Shown here piece after piece: positions 5,725-46,753 of a DNA stretch of 64,000 nt (position 1 is the first letter of the stretch; every line of letters begins with the position of its first letter). The DNA is from Clostridia bacterium (GTDB lineage: Bacteria > Bacillota > Clostridia > Monoglobales > Monoglobaceae), in assembly GCA_900769795.1 (NCBI GenBank), contig CAAGHZ010000001.1, forward strand, positions 25,178 to 89,177. Direction: 5' to 3'. Made by a program: the position numbers and the translations under genes. The notes under the pieces are model-generated. The model was not told the DNA's origin. It searched no databases and saw nothing but the letters and a program-made list of their open reading frames with translations.

Positions 5725-6462
5725 TTATATAGATGGAACAGTAGCAATAGTTGCCGCGTATACCCTGAATGCTCCACTCTCTTTAAGTACCTTTGCACAT
5801 TCTTCAAGGGTTGCACCCGTCGTACACACATCGTCTATCAGCAAAACTGTCTTCTTATCTATCTTTTCGGGTTTCCTCACTGCAAAATTACCTTTTACAT
5901 TCTCTATTCTGGCATCAAATGACAAAGAACTCTGTTTTTTGATGACCTCTTTTTGAACAAGTGCGTTTGAAATATAGTTTAAGCCAAGCCTTCTTGAAAC
6001 TGCCGCCGCAAGACACGCCGCCTGATCAAAATGCTCATCCGAAAACCCCTTTTTTCTGGGCGGCACAGATACTACAACATCAAAATCCACTCCGCCAAAA
6101 TCACTCTTTACCATTTGTGCGACATAGATTGCCAGAGTACTCGCAAAACCCGCATTCTTTTCTTTTTTAAAGCCCACAACTGCACGTTTCGCACCATCCG
6201 CATAAACAAACGCAGATGTTATCCGCGTATTATAGTGCCGCCTTTTGTAGCAATCCTTACACATATTTGTATCAGAGACCGCAACAGGTTTACCACAGCG
6301 CCTGCACCTATGATATGCCTTGCAATAAGGCAATTCATTTGCACAATCCGAGCAAACGTGCTTACTTGTCTTTGGCGACAGCCTTTTGCCGCAAAATATA
6401 CACTTTGGCGGAAATATAAGATTGAGTAAAACTTTCTTTACATCATATCCCACACAAACCAC
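5725..6462 (-). CDS. comF: ComF-family protein (phosphoribosyltransferase domain with N-terminal Cys-rich zinc finger)
   Basis: 245 aa. Four CxxC pairs at the N-terminus and the PRTase motif LLIDDVCTTGATL. The start is uncertain: the GTG at 6462 is only 2 nt from AAAAGG, and an in-frame GTG at 6453 has better spacing. Confidence 0.8.
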   Translation of the reverse strand: MVCVGYDVKKVLLNLIFPPKCIFCGKRLSPKTSKHVCSDCANELPYCKAYHRCRRCGKPVAVSDTNMCKDCYKRRHYNTRITSAFVYADGAKRAVVGFKKEKNAGFASTLAIYVAQMVKSDFGGVDFDVVVSVPPRKKGFSDEHFDQAACLAAAVSRRLGLNYISNALVQKEVIKKQSSLSFDARIENVKGNFAVRKPEKIDKKTVLLIDDVCTTGATLEECAKVLKESGAFRVYAATIATVPSI

Positions 6463-6493
6463 CGCCTTTTATAATTATTCCCAAATCTACATT

Positions 6494-6522
6494 AGTATAT
6501 CATACCAAAATATGAAATGCAA
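6494..6522 (-). promoter_or_regulatory. Sigma-A-type promoter for comF(-glmU-pth-mfd)
   Basis: On the minus strand: TTGCAT, a 17-nt spacer, then TG-A-TATACT (extended -10). It sits directly after the repeat-borne terminator. Confidence 0.5.
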
Positions 6523-6550
6523 GAAATAAATATGGACGCAGTGTTTATAC

Positions 6551-6578
6551 AAAAAAGGCTCCCTTGTGTAAAGGGAGC
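6551..6578 (-). terminator. Intrinsic terminator of the orphan gene, embedded in repeat copy 1
   Basis: On the minus strand an 8-bp stem (GCTCCCTT/AAGGGAGC) with a 5-nt loop is followed by TTTTTT. Confidence 0.6.
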
Positions 6579-6606
6579 TGTCAGCGTAGCTGACTGAGGG
6601 ATTGTC
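6551..6606 (-). repeat. GC-rich double-hairpin repeat, copy 1 (left half; GAGGGATTG end faces the orphan gene)
   Basis: Its reverse complement matches copy 2 at 14/15 and 28/28 flanking positions around a 9-10 nt divergent core. Internal hairpins are GCTCCCTT/AAGGGAGC and GTCAGC/GCTGAC. Confidence 0.85.
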
Positions 6607-6625
6607 TTGATTTACAGCTACTTTA

Positions 6626-7672
6626 TCAGTTAATAGTTTCTTTTGGCAGAACATTATATAAAACAACTGCACCTGCATTTCCTTGGTTATCTACATCATA
6701 GACCGCAACAGGGGTGTTTGGGTATACTACCTTTATGTGCTCCGCTCCTTTTAAAACCTTAGAATGTGCCTTACTTGCTTCGAAAGAGTTACCCATATTT
6801 ATCGTTTTGCTTTTCCCTATAATATAAAAGACATACGTTTCATCTGTTATCTTATAGCTTTTTAAACCACCAAGAGTTATTTCCCGTGTTGTCTTGTCAT
6901 ATAAATTCCCGCTTTCCGAATACTCATCCTGACAAGGCAATCCATTTGCAAATGCCGTATTTGCCTCGGTTGTTGCTAAGTATATTCCCGTAATCCCTTT
7001 AAACTCATTCATTGTATACTTTATAAGCCGATTTTTCAATTGGCTTGCAAGATTTTCATAATTTATCTTACCGTCGCTTGAATAATTTAAAATCTCAACC
7101 CTCTCATATGGATACTCTTCAACAACGATACCAGATTTGTCAAGAAGTTGAATCTTAATATTTTCTTCATCCCAATCATCTAATAGAGTTACCGCATTTA
7201 GAACATAAGCATATCTTGAGGCAGTTTTGTTCTCACCATCCTCAAACTTAATACCTTCGGATCCTCCCCCCATAGTTGCAGCGTTACTTAGATTTTTCTT
7301 TTTCTCTTTAGCATATGGTTTATTCTTATCATCCCATATAAAAAGCTTCACATAATTTCTATTATGTGATACATAATTTGGAATATCTGTAGAAAAAGAA
7401 ATCATTTCCCCCATAGGTATCCTTGTTTTATCTAACTTTTGAATGTTAAAAAGCTGACCTTCCTCTGTATATGCAGCTACAAATGGCTCTATTTCGTAAT
7501 CCTTTATTCCGTTATTTAAAACAGAAAAGCTAACACTGGTCCTTCTTGCAGACATAGACAATATATACAACTCTGCCTCGGATGCATAACTCATTGGTTG
7601 CATCAAAGCCAACAATACAATAGCAAATAATAATATCCTTACTGTCACCAACTTTGCATATTTAAAGCACAT
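6626..7672 (-). CDS. Hypothetical secreted protein; no family recognised
   Basis: About 348 aa. N-terminal signal-like segment (KLVTVRILLFAIVLLALMQPMSYA/SE). GGGGGG lies 6 nt before the ATG at 7672. The coding region is visibly AT-rich. It has its own promoter and terminator. Confidence 0.8.
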   Translation of the reverse strand: MCFKYAKLVTVRILLFAIVLLALMQPMSYASEAELYILSMSARRTSVSFSVLNNGIKDYEIEPFVAAYTEEGQLFNIQKLDKTRIPMGEMISFSTDIPNYVSHNRNYVKLFIWDDKNKPYAKEKKKNLSNAATMGGGSEGIKFEDGENKTASRYAYVLNAVTLLDDWDEENIKIQLLDKSGIVVEEYPYERVEILNYSSDGKINYENLASQLKNRLIKYTMNEFKGITGIYLATTEANTAFANGLPCQDEYSESGNLYDKTTREITLGGLKSYKITDETYVFYIIGKSKTINMGNSFEASKAHSKVLKGAEHIKVVYPNTPVAVYDVDNQGNAGAVVLYNVLPKETIN

Positions 7673-7721
7673 CACATACCCCCCAATGCCTTATTTTACA
7701 TATTTGTCACTTATATTTGTC

Positions 7722-7750
7722 ATTGTATCACGGTTTGATGATATTGTCAA
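7722..7750 (-). promoter_or_regulatory. Near-consensus sigma-A promoter of the orphan gene
   Basis: On the minus strand: TTGACA, a 17-nt spacer, then TG-A-TACAAT. The -35 lies 7 nt inside repeat copy 2. Confidence 0.65.
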
Positions 7751-7756
7751 CAAATC

Positions 7757-7813
7757 AACAATCCCTCAGTCTCGCAAGCTCGACAGCTCCCTTTACACAA
7801 GGGAGCCTTCTTC
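7757..7813 (+). repeat. GC-rich double-hairpin repeat, copy 2 (right half; CAATCCCTC end faces the orphan gene)
   Basis: CAACAATCCCTCAGTC...GACAGCTCCCTTTACACAAGGGAGCCTT is inverted relative to copy 1. Its T-tract is degenerate (TTCTTC). Confidence 0.85.
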
Positions 7814-8000
7814 AACTATCTAACATCACCCCTATATGTTTTAAGTAGGGCATAGCCCCTTTGTTCAATGAATAAACAATCTTTCTTTGTCATATCATAG
7901 AGTTATAGCGTTTTTTCATTTTATACAAAAATAATCGTTCTTGATTGTGCATTATATGTACGGATTTAATCTATACACAAAACGTCGGGGGGGCACACAT

Positions 8001-9947
8001 ATGAAAAAAGCACTAAACAATACTTGTGTCAAAAAATTCATTGACGAGACTTCATTATATCTCTTCAACAATGGAACAAACTATGAAAGCTACCATATGC
8101 TTGGGGCGCATCCGGCAACAGACGCCCATGGGGTCTTTGGTTATCTCTTTGCCCTATGGGCACCAAATGCAGAATCCGTCTCTGTGGTCTGCGACAACAA
8201 CGGTTGGGACAGGTCCCGCAATATAATGCACAAAATATCAACCTCCGGTGTCTGGGAAGTTTTCGTTCCACATATTACAGAGGGTCAGAATTATAAATTC
8301 AGCATTGAAGATACAAATGGTAATGTGTTTTTAAAATCCGACCCATTTGCATTTTACTCAGAAGTTCGCCCTTTGACAGCATCTGTCACAACTGATTTAT
8401 CATATGGTTGGAACGACAAAGTATGGATGGACAGTCGCAAAGCGACACCTCCCTATGACAAACCCCTCAACATCTACGAAATGCACTTTGGCTCTTTCAA
8501 GACCAAGAATGACGGCAGTTTTTATACCTACACCGAGATGATAGATATTCTTATACCATACATCAAAAAACTCGGATACACCCATATTGAACTTATGCCG
8601 ATTTGCGAGTATCCCTTTGACGGCAGTTGGGGATATCAGGTGACCGGTTATTACAGCGCAAACAGCCGCTATGGTAAACCAACAGAACTCAAATCATTTA
8701 TCGACGCCTGCCATAGGGAGGGCATAGGTGTGATTATGGATTGGGTGCCTGCCCACTTTCCAAAAGATGCCCATGGGCTTGCTAACTTTGACGGCACCCC
8801 TTTATTTGAGCATCCCGACGCAAGGCGTGGTGAACATAAAGAGTGGGGCACTCTTGTTTTTGACTGGACAAAAACGGAGATTTTCTCATTTCTTATCTCC
8901 AACGCCATCTTCTGGCTCTCGGAATATCATATAGATGGTCTTCGTGTTGATGCGGTATCCAGTATGCTATATCTTGATTACAACCGCCAGGGCGGAGAGT
9001 GGCTACCCAACAAATACGGTGGCAAAGAGAATTTAGAAGCAATTGACTTTTTGCAAAAATTAAACACCGCAGTTTTCGAGAGATTCCCTAATGTTTTAAT
9101 GATTGCCGAAGAATCCACCGCCTGGAGCGGTGTTACTGCGCCTGCAGACACAGGCGGACTTGGGTTTAACTTTAAATGGAATATGGGTTGGATGCACGAT
9201 ATTCTCGATTATATGCAATGCGACCCGCTCTTCCGCAAATACAACCATAACAAACTGACTTTTTCTATGATGTACGCTTCTTCAGAAAATTATATCCTTG
9301 CCCTGTCTCACGACGAGGTTGTTCACGGGAAACGCTCGCTTCTTGACAAAATGTGGGGCAGTTACGAAGAAAAGTTTGCTCAGCTTCGGCTTTTGTATGC
9401 ATATATGTACGCACACCCGGGCAAAAAACTTCTGTTTATGGGCAGCGAATTCGGGCAATTTACCGAATGGCGATTTGCCGAAGAACTTGATTGGCTCCTC
9501 GACGATTACGATCTGCACTCGAAAATGCGGGCATATTGTTCTACTCTTAATAAATTCTACAAGGACCATAGTTCATTTTATGAAATCGAGCGCGAAGGCG
9601 AAGACTGGCGTGGCTTTAAGTGGCTTTGTGCAGACGATTTCTCAAACAGCGTGCTGTCTTTTATGCGCGCCAACAAAAAAGGCGACGAGAAAATTGTCGT
9701 TATAATAAACTTTACTCCTGTAAGTCGGCCTAACTACGTTGTGGGGGTTCCGGAATATGGAGAATTTGAGGTTGTAATGTCCTCCAACGCAAAGTCTTTT
9801 GGCGGAGATGGCAGAGGCTCTCGCAAACTTAGCGCAAAACTCAAACCACACAATGATTTTAATTATTCAATCAGACTAAACCTCCCTCCACTTACGGCTT
9901 TATATTTAAAATTTAAACCACTTTCTGAAAAACCAAAGCAAAGCTGA
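8001..9947 (+). CDS. glgB: 1,4-alpha-glucan branching enzyme (GH13)
   Basis: Motifs DWVPAHFPKD, GLRVDAVSSM and MIAEESTAW. The ATG at 8001 is preceded by GGGGGGG and is preferred over the track start at 7941. Confidence 0.95.
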   Translation: MKKALNNTCVKKFIDETSLYLFNNGTNYESYHMLGAHPATDAHGVFGYLFALWAPNAESVSVVCDNNGWDRSRNIMHKISTSGVWEVFVPHITEGQNYKFSIEDTNGNVFLKSDPFAFYSEVRPLTASVTTDLSYGWNDKVWMDSRKATPPYDKPLNIYEMHFGSFKTKNDGSFYTYTEMIDILIPYIKKLGYTHIELMPICEYPFDGSWGYQVTGYYSANSRYGKPTELKSFIDACHREGIGVIMDWVPAHFPKDAHGLANFDGTPLFEHPDARRGEHKEWGTLVFDWTKTEIFSFLISNAIFWLSEYHIDGLRVDAVSSMLYLDYNRQGGEWLPNKYGGKENLEAIDFLQKLNTAVFERFPNVLMIAEESTAWSGVTAPADTGGLGFNFKWNMGWMHDILDYMQCDPLFRKYNHNKLTFSMMYASSENYILALSHDEVVHGKRSLLDKMWGSYEEKFAQLRLLYAYMYAHPGKKLLFMGSEFGQFTEWRFAEELDWLLDDYDLHSKMRAYCSTLNKFYKDHSSFYEIEREGEDWRGFKWLCADDFSNSVLSFMRANKKGDEKIVVIINFTPVSRPNYVVGVPEYGEFEVVMSSNAKSFGGDGRGSRKLSAKLKPHNDFNYSIRLNLPPLTALYLKFKPLSEKPKQS

Positions 9948-17649: not shown

Positions 17650-17662
17650 TTTATAAATATTA

Positions 17663-17702
17663 TTTTACAAAGGTTTCCGCAGCCGCGGAAACCTTTGTAA
17701 AA
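17663..17702 (+). other. Perfect 18-bp stem-loop between the SBP gene and the next gene
   Basis: TTTTACAAAGGTTTCCGC, loop AGCC, then GCGGAAACCTTTGTAAAA. No U-tract follows on the plus strand, so it reads as an attenuating or stabilising hairpin rather than a clean terminator. Confidence 0.8.
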
Positions 17703-17742
17703 TAACCGGATCTTTATTGGTTATCGAGAGGTTTGTATACAT

Positions 17743-27734: not shown

Positions 27735-28805
27735 TTATTGATGCCTTTTTGTGCGACCACCCAGAAATATCGCATAAACCCCGGGCAGAAACTTCTCAAG
27801 AAAGGCACATGCACCATTTATGATTACAATTGTAAGAACAACCATAACCATAAACTTAGGAATCTCCAGCCACTCATTTTGCGGCGCGAAGAAAGAAAGT
27901 ACTTTAAGTATAATTATTGCAATATTGAGATGCATTGCATAAATAGCAAATGAACGGCGATAAATTGCTCTTGGTTTAATTCGCTCAATAAAAATATCTA
28001 CCACGTTCCACAAAGCAAATGATGCAAGGGTATATACGATAGTCTCTATTAAATAATTACTGATATGTAATCCTTGCGGAACTATATTCTTCGCGAAAAT
28101 ATATGCACAAAGCAACACAACAGACACAATTTGCATTGGCTTTGACGATTTGTTTGAAGCAAAATCAAAGAAATGATAACCGATAATTGCCCCTATTAAA
28201 TAAAAAACGATTGACATGGGATAATAAAATACATCCGTCGGAATGTAAAAACCAAACAAAGATACTATGGACAAACATATAATCGTAGTTATACCAATAT
28301 ACTTATTTCGGATAAACACAAACAACAAAGGTGCCGCAAGGGAAAATATAATTATATCAAATATAAACCAAAACGGCATATTGCTCCCATAGAAGAAAAT
28401 ACCTTTTAGTATACTTACAGGCGTCAAAGGATATGGCTCGCTTATTGCAGAAAATTTTGAAACAAAGGAGTAGGAGCACAAAATATCCCAAAGCATCCAT
28501 ACGGCATTCCAAAGCAAATAGGGTATAATCAGAGTATATACTCTGGATTTGATTTTCCTCAGGTATTTTTTGTTGCTATAATCTTTAAAAAAAGATATTC
28601 CCGACAACATAAAAAACATAGGGACCGCAAATTGTGTAATGGATCGCGAGAAAAAATAGGATGTTTTATGATTAACAACAGAAATAAAGTTATCACTCAC
28701 GCATTCCTGAGCAAAATATGAATGGATAAATAACACAAGAATACTTAATAAAAAAGAGATAAACTCTTTCTTCTTCCAGAAATTTGTTTCACTTTTATCG
28801 TTCAT
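27735..28805 (-). CDS. Acyltransferase family 3 integral membrane protein
   Basis: 356 aa and about 10 TM segments. VLFIHS near the N-terminus and VPMFFMLSGISFF resemble Acyl_transf_3 motifs. The gene is AT-rich by eye. Confidence 0.6.
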   Translation of the reverse strand: MNDKSETNFWKKKEFISFLLSILVLFIHSYFAQECVSDNFISVVNHKTSYFFSRSITQFAVPMFFMLSGISFFKDYSNKKYLRKIKSRVYTLIIPYLLWNAVWMLWDILCSYSFVSKFSAISEPYPLTPVSILKGIFFYGSNMPFWFIFDIIIFSLAAPLLFVFIRNKYIGITTIICLSIVSLFGFYIPTDVFYYPMSIVFYLIGAIIGYHFFDFASNKSSKPMQIVSVVLLCAYIFAKNIVPQGLHISNYLIETIVYTLASFALWNVVDIFIERIKPRAIYRRSFAIYAMHLNIAIIILKVLSFFAPQNEWLEIPKFMVMVVLTIVIINGACAFLEKFLPGVYAIFLGGRTKRHQ

Positions 28806-28863: not shown

Positions 28864-28933
28864 TCCCACCATTTTCCTTACATAAAAATTCCTTGATTGC
28901 ACAAAATACATTTATAAAATTAATCAAAGCAAA

Positions 28934-29040
28934 GCCTCCATCACCTAGAGGGAGGGGGACCGCTTGCGGTGGAGGGATTTTGAAAAATCAGCAATCCCCC
29001 AGTCGCCTTACGGTGCCAGTCCCATTTAGGCAAGTGGGTC
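28934..29040. repeat. Inverted dimer of the double-hairpin repeat family (both halves back to back), filling the spoVT leader
   Basis: The left half AAGCCTCC..AGAGGGAG..ACCGCTTGCGGT..GGAGGGATT parallels copy 1. The right half CAGCAATCCCCCAGTC..CAGTCCCATTTAGGCAAGTGGGTCTT parallels copy 2. GGGATT and AATCCC pair across a 13-nt loop. Confidence 0.7.
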
Positions 29041-29063
29041 TTAATTATCAAAGGAGTATCAAA

Positions 29064-46643: not shown

Positions 46644-46753
46644 ATCTGCATCTCCAACATCATCAGAATATTTAATAAATATGTCTCTGTCTGAGGCACA
46701 TTTATTAAATATTCTGCAAGTTCCGCAAAAGCGGAACTTGCAGATGTATTTCA

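Follow-up and report, generated by a model that had tools for sequence, protein, structure and literature searches.

In a 64,000-nt stretch of DNA from a Clostridia bacterium of the Monoglobaceae (assembly GCA_900769795.1, contig CAAGHZ010000001.1, positions 25,178-89,177 of the forward strand; hereafter the window), the spacer between comF and glgB contains a 1.26-kb block in which a single gene is bracketed by two inverted repeat copies. Both copies are shown here to be type-1 units of a modular family of hairpin repeats, conserved in structure and very abundant in human-gut Clostridia (Oscillospiraceae-type genomes). The dominant form of this family is a head-to-head pair of units whose GAGGGATTG and CAATCCCTC ends face a variable centre, and the only cargo that recurs in this centre is a gene for a DUF559 nuclease. 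The block is an atypical member, being a type-1/type-1 pair with a centre occupied by an unrelated, AT-rich and lineage-specific gene for a predicted secreted protein, which has its own promoter. We hold with moderate confidence that the block is a cargo-carrying variant of this nuclease-associated palindromic repeat family, which is apparently undescribed.

An initial annotation of the window had seen in this block an orphan-gene cassette between the two halves of a split palindrome, and had proposed either that a gene was inserted into a palindrome already present at the site or that such elements delimit small gene cassettes. The observation is confirmed, and the interpretation is partly supported.

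Two inverted units in the comF-glgB spacer

The inverted orientation of the two copies is borne out by their arms (6552-6582 and 7782-7812; 31 nt, 97% complementary), which form the longest inverted repeat of the whole window. Copy 1 was read, in 6301-8100, as AAAAAAGGCTCCCTTGTGTAAAGGGAGCTGTC-AGCGTAGCTGA-CTGAGGGATTGTC and copy 2, once reverse-complemented, as GAAGAAGGCTCCCTTGTGTAAAGGGAGCTGTC-GAGCTTGCGAGA-CTGAGGGATTGTT. Each copy folds into a first hairpin, termed A (GGCTCCCTT/AAGGGAGCC), followed by a second one, termed B, and the divergent core between them is hairpin B, of which copy 1 has a perfect and copy 2 a degenerate version. As had been described, the GGGATT ends (GGGATTG in full) point inward on both sides and those with the hairpin and the A/T-run point outward, the inverted ends of the block extending to AAAG...CTTT. 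With at most one mismatch, the core CTGAGGGATTG has four matches in the window for 0.96 expected, and none of 100 shuffles reached four. Both copies match the profile of the repeat unit described below with E ~1e-13, and a search with this profile gives a density of four units in the 64 kb. Both are of type 1 and match the 3' end of the canonical nuclease elements.

The identity that had been noted around the divergent core (28/28 and 14/15 positions) is indeed seen, but it is not specific to this pair. In fact, the 26-mer of hairpin A, GGCTCCCTTGTGTAAAGGGAGCTGTC, is identical in at least 120 unrelated metagenome contigs. The near-identity of copies 1 and 2 is thus a family property and, because unrelated copies share it, carries no weight. 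Just outside copy 2, a small GC hairpin (GGGCATAGCCCC, 7846-7862) is present in the part of the spacer that is specific to the window, and is absent from the spacers of relatives.

Table 1. Features of the comF-glgB block and of the spoVT-upstream dimer (positions in the window)
Feature	Position	Strand	Remarks
Whole block, 1,263 bp	6551..7813	none	Indel relative to the closest relatives; edges placed only within a poorly conserved stretch of ~70 nt
Copy 1, type-1 repeat unit	6551..6606	+	Profile match 6554-6605 (+)
Copy 1, A-run	6551-6556
Copy 1, hairpin A	6558-6578
Copy 1, hairpin B	6580-6594		GTCAGC-GTA-GCTGAC
Copy 1, core CTGAGGGATTG	6594-6604	+	Exact match
Intrinsic-terminator-like site	6578-6558	-	Copy 1 hairpin A on the minus strand; GCTCCCTTTACACAAGGGAGC CTTTTTTGTA
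Cargo gene, 348 aa	6626..7672	-	Hydrophobic, signal-peptide-like N-terminal helix
RBS-like GGGGGG (RBS, ribosome-binding site)	7679..7684	-	6 nt upstream of the ATG at 7672; read from the sequence
Sigma-70-type promoter	7722..7750	-	TTGACA-17 nt-TG-n-TACAAT; 11/12 matches; begins 3 nt past the inner extension of copy 2
Copy 2, type-1 repeat unit, inverted	7757..7813	-	Profile match 7758-7809 (-)
Copy 2, core	7759-7769		CAATCCCTCAG on + (= CTGAGGGATTG on -); exact match
Copy 2, hairpin B	7769-7784		Degenerate, GTCGAGCTTGCGAGAC
Copy 2, hairpin A	7786-7806
Copy 2, tail	Outer end of copy 2		CTTCTTC, also CTTCTTCAAC; not scored as terminator
Short dimer of the same family, ORF-less (ORF, open reading frame)	28931..29045	none	In the divergent promoter region of spoVT and an acyltransferase gene
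Dimer, type-2-like unit	28931-28986	+	One half of the spoVT-upstream dimer
Dimer, type-1-like unit	28990-29045	-	Other half of the spoVT-upstream dimer

Comparison with the spacers of relatives

Relatives were located through ComF homologues of 88%, 86% and 83% identity, and their contigs were compared with the window. In those at 88% (L003/L004) and at 86% (L006), glgB and comF are divergent and lie 342 and 282 nt apart, and these spacers contain neither an ORF nor a repeat unit. Once positions 6551-7813 are removed, the spacer of the window aligns to those of the relatives, with shared blocks on the glgB side (CTATGATATGAMAAAGAAA..GTTTATTCA) and on the comF side (TATTTATTTCTTGCA...). The junction lies somewhere within ~70 nt of poor conservation, and the flanks are ~12% diverged. 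Since the gene and both units are absent together from the relatives, and since removing the bracket restores the alignment, the 1.26-kb block is, as judged from this alignment, clearly an indel, with ends that are placed to within this stretch.

The contigs found at 83% identity (L007/L008, 1-206) break off within other GC-rich repeat modules (TCATTCCGAGCCTGTCGAGGAATC.., GGGGACGATGCCCACATCGTCCC), 207 nt upstream of comF. Repeats thus seem to accumulate in the comF-glgB spacer of more than one lineage.

The cargo gene and its expression signals

The near-consensus promoter of the initial annotation holds, with 11 of 12 matches, and so does the terminator that it had attributed to the left half of the palindrome. 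On the minus strand, hairpin A of copy 1 is terminator-like, a GC-rich hairpin being followed by a T-run on the transcribed strand as in intrinsic terminators. The cargo ORF starts ~85 nt beyond copy 2. Its GC content is 0.348, in the lowest 2% of same-size windows, versus a mean of 0.421 (sd 0.027) for the 64 kb, and its GC content at third codon positions (GC3) is 0.30.

The description of this gene as an orphan stands as far as families are concerned, the protein having no Pfam or NCBIfam family, but not for homology as a whole. A word-indexed search of 5.8 billion proteins matched the protein only to itself, and an exhaustive HMMER search returned 15 weak relatives (best E 3e-46, 37% identity). 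Most of these matches are to internal regions of proteins of ~350-1,300 aa, and SLH domains are present in two of the five relatives that were scanned. By exact look-up, the 348-aa form with an ATG start is recorded on two contigs of one species only, and the 349-aa ORF with a GTG start has no record. An AlphaFold model built from the single sequence was too poor for a fold search (mean predicted local distance difference test score, 42.7). Collectively, these features make the ORF look like a real gene that is specific to its lineage, encodes a secreted or surface protein and is probably of foreign origin.

A 63-aa ORF on the minus strand (6487-6678; ..NPSVSYADSSLYTREP..) is spurious and results from read-through of copy 1. 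Units of this family are expected to yield many such false 'hypothetical proteins' (NPSVSFADSSLYTREP type) in the annotations of gut Clostridia.

A very abundant family of two-hairpin units

When metagenome contigs were scanned for exact copies of the hairpin A 26-mer, at least 120 stretches were obtained, mostly from human gut. The family was surveyed in 120 metagenome loci and the window (~0.82-0.88 Mb of unit-rich DNA) by using an iterated local profile, which identified 221 units. Oriented extraction revealed an invariant scaffold composed of AAA, hairpin A, TGTC, hairpin B and GACTGAGGGATTG. Within it, hairpin B is variable in sequence and length, with changes that are matched on both sides (e.g., AGC-GAA-GCT, ACC-GAA-GGT, AGCC-GTAA-GGCT and AAAATGATTT...AAATCATTTT).

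Both hairpins covary. Across 109 distinct units, 93.9% of the cells are paired versus 79% in shuffles, double-sided changes amount to 215 versus 61, and the covariation score is 0.335 versus 0.094, values which none of 500 shuffles reached; controls in which the pairing was slid gave 38-56% paired. The loops of hairpin B are of the G..A type in 79 of the 109 units (GAA, GCA, GTA, GTAA, GTCA) and of the T..C type in a single one. Such strand-specific loops indicate that one strand is selected and, because the G..A polarity is the same relative to each end of an element, recognition at the DNA level fits better than a role in the mRNA. Among DNA mini-hairpins, those with C(GNA)G triloops, for instance GCGAAGC, are of exceptional stability.

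In human-gut Oscillospiraceae-type genomes, few non-coding sequences are as common as these repeats. Solo type-1 units are often located just past the stop codons of ordinary genes, so that there is nothing unusual in a terminator role of copy 1. The initial annotation had itself considered that its repeats might be ubiquitous terminators, and their ubiquity is real.

In species-representative genomes, the core motif ACTGRGGGATTGYTGATTT has 10 matches, one of which, in an Oscillospiraceae metagenome-assembled genome (MAG; L016), was read and confirmed. The others come from unrelated phyla, share only the searched core with the unit profile and are about as numerous as expected by chance. Neither window copy was returned from this collection, although both match the pattern, and the source genome is thus apparently outside it. 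A scan of viral contigs gave no matches, and Rfam returned only noise, both at the gathering threshold for the whole window and in E-value mode for both repeat sites and a canonical element.

The plasmid collection contained a single unit and nothing more, in Vescimonas fastidiosa. This unit, with hairpin A GGCCCCCTTGCCTAAAGGGGGC, is carried by pMM35_01 (about 69.5 kb; L163, 2470-3010) of strain MM35, a cultured human-gut Oscillospiraceae isolate, and belongs to an unannotated cluster of 600 nt in which GC-rich hairpin modules of several kinds occur together. A sequence of ~85 nt (TTTCTTGAAAGAAAAGTAACTAAAAGAACTAATAGACCCACGAACGGGTTGCACGGTAT) is found ahead of a type-1 unit in contexts that otherwise have nothing in common (L099, 1780-1905, compared with L028 and L044) and looks like another recurrent module attached to units. 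The flank shared by these loci was considered as an orthologous site and rejected, as it is this other repeat module.

Head-to-head pairs and the DUF559 nuclease

Among 99 neighbouring pairs of units, 57 are head-to-head (+-), 17 are --, 13 are -+ and 12 are ++. The gap between head-to-head units is 0-98 nt in 44 of the 57 pairs, hereafter short dimers, and 345-357 nt in 12, which contain a DUF559 ORF of ~122 aa; the last pair, with a gap of 1152 nt, is the window block. Short dimers are mostly type-1/type-2, seven being type-1/type-1, and their hypervariable centres have nothing in common but the flanking GAGGGATTG and CAATCCCTC.

The initial annotation had likened the comF-glgB spacer to a palindrome with a foreign segment of 1.15 kb in its centre. 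This view agrees with the predominance of the head-to-head form, with the hypervariability of its centre and with the absence of the block from relatives. The other proposal, that the units are general boundaries or insulators of gene cassettes, does not hold: DUF559 is the only recurrent cargo (12/57 pairs) and the window provides the sole other case, so that the family does not, in general, bracket genes of any kind.

Each 345-nt centre is one DUF559 ORF (Vsr-like, PD-(D/E)xK fold; PF04480, E 1.5e-29), which matches PDB 3HRL (E 4e-11) and an NCBIfam family named after E. coli YcjD. The 5' unit is of type 2 (GCCTCCC..GGGAGGTGGC..GACGGAGGGATTG) and places a GGAGG RBS 7 nt before the ATG. The 3' unit is an inverted type 1, which encodes the C-terminal QSLSQLR (last seven codons), the TGA and a terminator made of hairpin A and T's. 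The ORF boundaries read GGAGGGATTGTCATG at the start and CAATCCCTCAGTC...TGA at the end. All 14 DUF559 ORFs of the surveyed loci are adjoined by units, 12 of them on both sides, one by a single recognised unit and one being cut by the contig end. Two further DUF559 loci, picked by their protein and found in two genomic contexts (~20 contigs), are likewise bracketed.

The DUF559 proteins are 65-100% identical while the units are nearly invariant, and identical proteins are found in one genomic context each. A word-limited search for this subfamily returned at least 8,000 scored candidates, all with E <= 1e-10 and many on short contigs; the named members among the matches listed belong to Faecousia, Oscillospiraceae and Clostridia MAGs. 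In the surveyed loci, none of the unit pairs was seen to enclose a transposase, no target-site duplication was visible at 47 distinct paired elements, and the comparison of filled and empty sites among 98 unit clusters gave no clean case.

Two further observations concern DUF559 loci. In same-species strains with an identical DUF559 protein, a short dimer is present or absent (L139, 2140-2570; L141, 1950-2545; L140, 1140-1460); this polymorphic dimer has the sub-family core GGAGGGAGAGAAT / ATTCTCTCCCTCAG and lies inside a mosaic of other GC-rich modules. In E. coli K-12 (L164, NC_000913.3, 1351180-1351830), the start codon of ycjD is spanned by a perfect 17-nt palindrome, its stop codon lies inside a GC-rich hairpin (CCCTCTCCCTGAAAGAGCGAGGGGG), and a partial duplicate of the 3' end of the gene is found downstream, followed by a second GGGGAGAGGGTTAGGGTGAGGGG module. 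As a lead only, these surroundings may parallel the arrangement of the Clostridial DUF559 genes.

Origin of the block

Regarding the mode of movement of the block, we infer that the dimer centre is the place where DNA is gained and lost, and that the DUF559 nuclease would be the agent of these changes. The latter proposal is based on its fold: DUF559, Vsr and the I-Bth0305I structure 3r3p have been grouped together (PMC3424549), and I-Bth0305I is a homodimeric Vsr-fold homing endonuclease whose cut site lies at the centre of its pseudopalindromic target (PMC3239194). Foreign DNA would have been captured in, or would have replaced, the centre of a dimer, this centre being the hypervariable point of the family and a palindromic site of a kind open to cleavage by a homodimeric Vsr-fold nuclease. 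The bracketed block would then have been gained at the comF-glgB spacer in one piece. Once in place, copy 1 would terminate the cargo transcript before comF, and copy 2 would separate the cargo promoter from that of glgB by a strong hairpin.

A bolder and rather doubtful extension would make of the DUF559 nuclease and the two-hairpin units an undescribed selfish system of gut Clostridia, comparable to REPIN-RAYT but based on a Vsr-fold nuclease. The nuclease would cut the palindromic GAGGGATTG-N-CAATCCCTC centre of dimers, and repair would copy the gene in, delete it or, occasionally, trap foreign DNA; the cargo gene of the window would be one that was trapped, and the dimers would serve as natural landing pads for the gain of genes.

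Several points weigh against a cargo-carrying variant of this family. 1) The 64-kb window contains no DUF559 gene and no DUF559 remnant was found inside the cassette. 2) Canonical nuclease elements are type-2/type-1 pairs and the cassette is a type-1/type-1 pair. 3) No comF-glgB allele with an empty dimer was found, the relatives having no repeat at all there; insertion into a palindrome pre-existing at this site, which predicts such an uninterrupted dimer, is therefore unproven. 4) At the block, neither a target-site duplication nor an exact junction is definable, owing to diverged flanks and a variable stretch. 5) Identical DUF559 proteins are locus-fixed, and their single context gives no sign of recent copying between loci. 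6) With a single non-DUF559 cargo case, either capture is rare or the window case is accidental. 7) The activity of the DUF559 nuclease and its target are putative. Active copying is also disfavoured in that no duplications flank the elements and, except for the strain polymorphism in the module mosaic, no clean empty dimer site was recovered. Such stable gene copies and strongly conserved units resemble domesticated RAYT genes more than insertion sequences (ISs).

The main rival explanation is coincidence: an acquired gene would use an ordinary solo unit as its terminator, a second and independent solo unit would lie upstream in the opposite orientation, and the bracket would reflect neither shared history nor function. 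The ubiquity of the units, the many solo type-1 units behind ordinary stop codons and the family-wide identity to which copies 1 and 2 conform all speak for this explanation, as does the lack of a head-to-head excess among pairs more than 400 nt apart (+- 1, -+ 7, ++ 4, -- 4). However, coincidence does not explain why both units and the gene are jointly missing from the relatives and why removal of exactly the bracketed block restores the alignment of the spacer, nor why the orientation of the bracket is the dominant architecture of the family. Moreover, at four units per 64 kb, we estimate that a second unit would occur less than ~100 nt from the promoter in the right orientation in ~0.5% of cases by chance. 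Coincidence is, in our opinion, unlikely.

Alternatively, the block could be a mobile insertion cassette or a cargo-carrying miniature inverted-repeat transposable element (MITE), in which the units would be the terminal inverted repeats of a conventional transposase encoded elsewhere and the whole block would have transposed into the spacer. In line with such a transposition, the ends are inverted up to AAAG...CTTT, the edges of the indel coincide with the outer ends of the units, and the short ORF-less dimers are MITE-like, one of them being present or absent between strains. Transposition nevertheless appears improbable in view of the 47 paired elements, at which no target-site duplication was visible, and of the ORF that recurs between the ends, which encodes a small PD-(D/E)xK nuclease and not a known type of transposase. 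In addition, the centres vary rather than the ends, and identical nuclease copies are locus-fixed.

More improbable still, the units could be expression modules acting at the RNA level, with a structured 5' leader carrying an RBS and a terminator that would serve any flanked gene, the cassette being a gene equipped with standard control elements. For DUF559 genes, the type-2 unit does provide the RBS and the inverted type-1 unit the terminator; copy 1 is terminator-like and the hairpins covary. In the cassette, however, copy 2 is not an RBS, the ORF starting ~85 nt further, and both copy 2 and the spoVT-upstream dimer described below are placed between divergent promoters, a position that calls for no terminator. 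The constant G..A loop polarity relative to each end also implies that the 3' unit is antisense in the mRNA, which fits selection at the DNA level, and no Rfam family matches.

Three other candidates were rejected: an integron attC cassette, as the block has no RYYYAAC/GTTRRRY core sites, its ends being AAAGGCTCCC and CTGAGGGATTG, and its ORF has an 11/12 promoter; IS200/IS605 ends, as those of the block are inverted rather than direct; and an invertible promoter, as flipping a self-contained gene changes nothing.

Other palindromes of the window

The back-to-back halves that had been reported near 28934-29040 are those of the short dimer upstream of spoVT (Table 1). Its two units have diverged and are arranged with ~13 nt between GGGATT and AATCCC, and the unit profile recovers both of them (E 2.7e-11 and 2.6e-8). 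Together they form a 107-nt imperfect palindrome with a fold of -49 kcal/mol (z -3.8). The dimer is kept in two other contigs of the same species (L151, 553-603; L152, 217-267), in which all four substitutions relative to the window are inside the dimer and the flanks are identical. No empty site was found for it, these same-species contigs being the sole others available. If the spoVT promoter lies upstream of the dimer, the latter would sit in the spoVT leader.

Beside this dimer, an Acyl_transf_3 membrane-protein gene (27735-28805, minus strand) occupies the kilobase with the highest AT content in the window (GC 0.31-0.34) and may be a second acquired gene next to a repeat dimer; its far side has an ordinary terminator only and no unit. 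Two strong AT-rich palindromes, at 46664-46716 (24-nt arms, 92% complementary, 5-nt gap) and at 17660-17705 (21-nt arms, 100% complementary, 4-nt gap), are unrelated to the unit family.

Significance and comparison with known systems

In the literature, neither these repeats nor any connection of DUF559 with palindromic repeats were found to be described, which is not proof of novelty, most subscription journals being outside the coverage. In Faecalibacterium, a DUF559 gene beside mam is merely mentioned (PMC8836110), and a survey of conserved MITEs names this genus only in passing (PMC11602168).

A single atypical cassette is of modest interest alone, and the family behind the block is more interesting than the block itself. 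Through the cassette, a repeat system that is associated with a nuclease and very abundant in human-gut bacteria comes to light, and its mechanism is open to direct tests. If the DUF559 nuclease acts on these palindromes, the cassette would be a concrete example of palindromes enabling the gain of a surface-protein gene between two housekeeping operons, which are left undisturbed. If the bracket is accidental, the family would still be worth masking in gene calling and recognising as a cause of assembly breaks.

Within the family of unit-bracketed DUF559 elements defined here, the window block has the head-to-head arrangement with GGGATTG ends inward, and differs from the other members by the absence of a DUF559 ORF using the RBS and stop codon of the units and by the absence of a type-2 5' unit. 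Like integron cassettes, it associates a single gene with imperfect palindromes whose structure, rather than sequence, is conserved; unlike them, it has its own promoter and two inverted units instead of one attC, and the window contains neither an array nor an integrase. Mobile insertion cassettes of the MIC231 type, from Bacillus cereus, are also transposase-free passenger genes between inverted repeats which behave as a whole as an indel. The present family differs in its ends, which are not those of an IS, in the lack of a visible duplication and in its single case of non-DUF559 cargo.

The units also share several properties with MITEs (Correia of Neisseria, ERIC, RUP, BOX) and BIME-type mosaics, namely palindromic intergenic elements of ~100-150 bp with terminal inverted repeats, presence or absence between strains, possible terminator or promoter activity and clustering with other GC-rich modules. 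They differ in three respects: target-site duplications were not visible, a transposase-bearing parent IS was not found, and the centre varies rather than the whole body. With Vsr-fold (EDxHD) homing endonuclease genes such as that of I-Bth0305I (PMC3239194), DUF559 shares a related nuclease fold, a small selfish-looking ORF and, by analogy, the preference for a pseudopalindromic target. The DUF559 ORFs are, however, ~122 aa long and single-domain, and they are located in a repeat dimer and not in an intron or intein; homing is here putative.

The REP/REPIN-RAYT systems of Proteobacteria offer a further parallel. In both cases, many short extragenic hairpin units of conserved structure are found, with the inverted doublet as the dominant form (here, in metagenome loci), and two inverted units enclose one small gene of nuclease type, whose copies are locus-fixed and not freshly transposed. 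The differences are that the units described here are two-hairpin modules of ~55 nt with a variable second hairpin, that they overlap the RBS and the stop codon of the gene, and that their hosts are gut Clostridia. Above all, the bracketed gene encodes a DUF559/Vsr-like PD-(D/E)xK nuclease, whereas RAYT is a Y1 (IS200-like) HUH transposase. If the DUF559 nuclease services these palindromes, a function would be assigned to a large domain of unknown function, and a second, unrelated class of enzymes would be added to the REP/RAYT paradigm.

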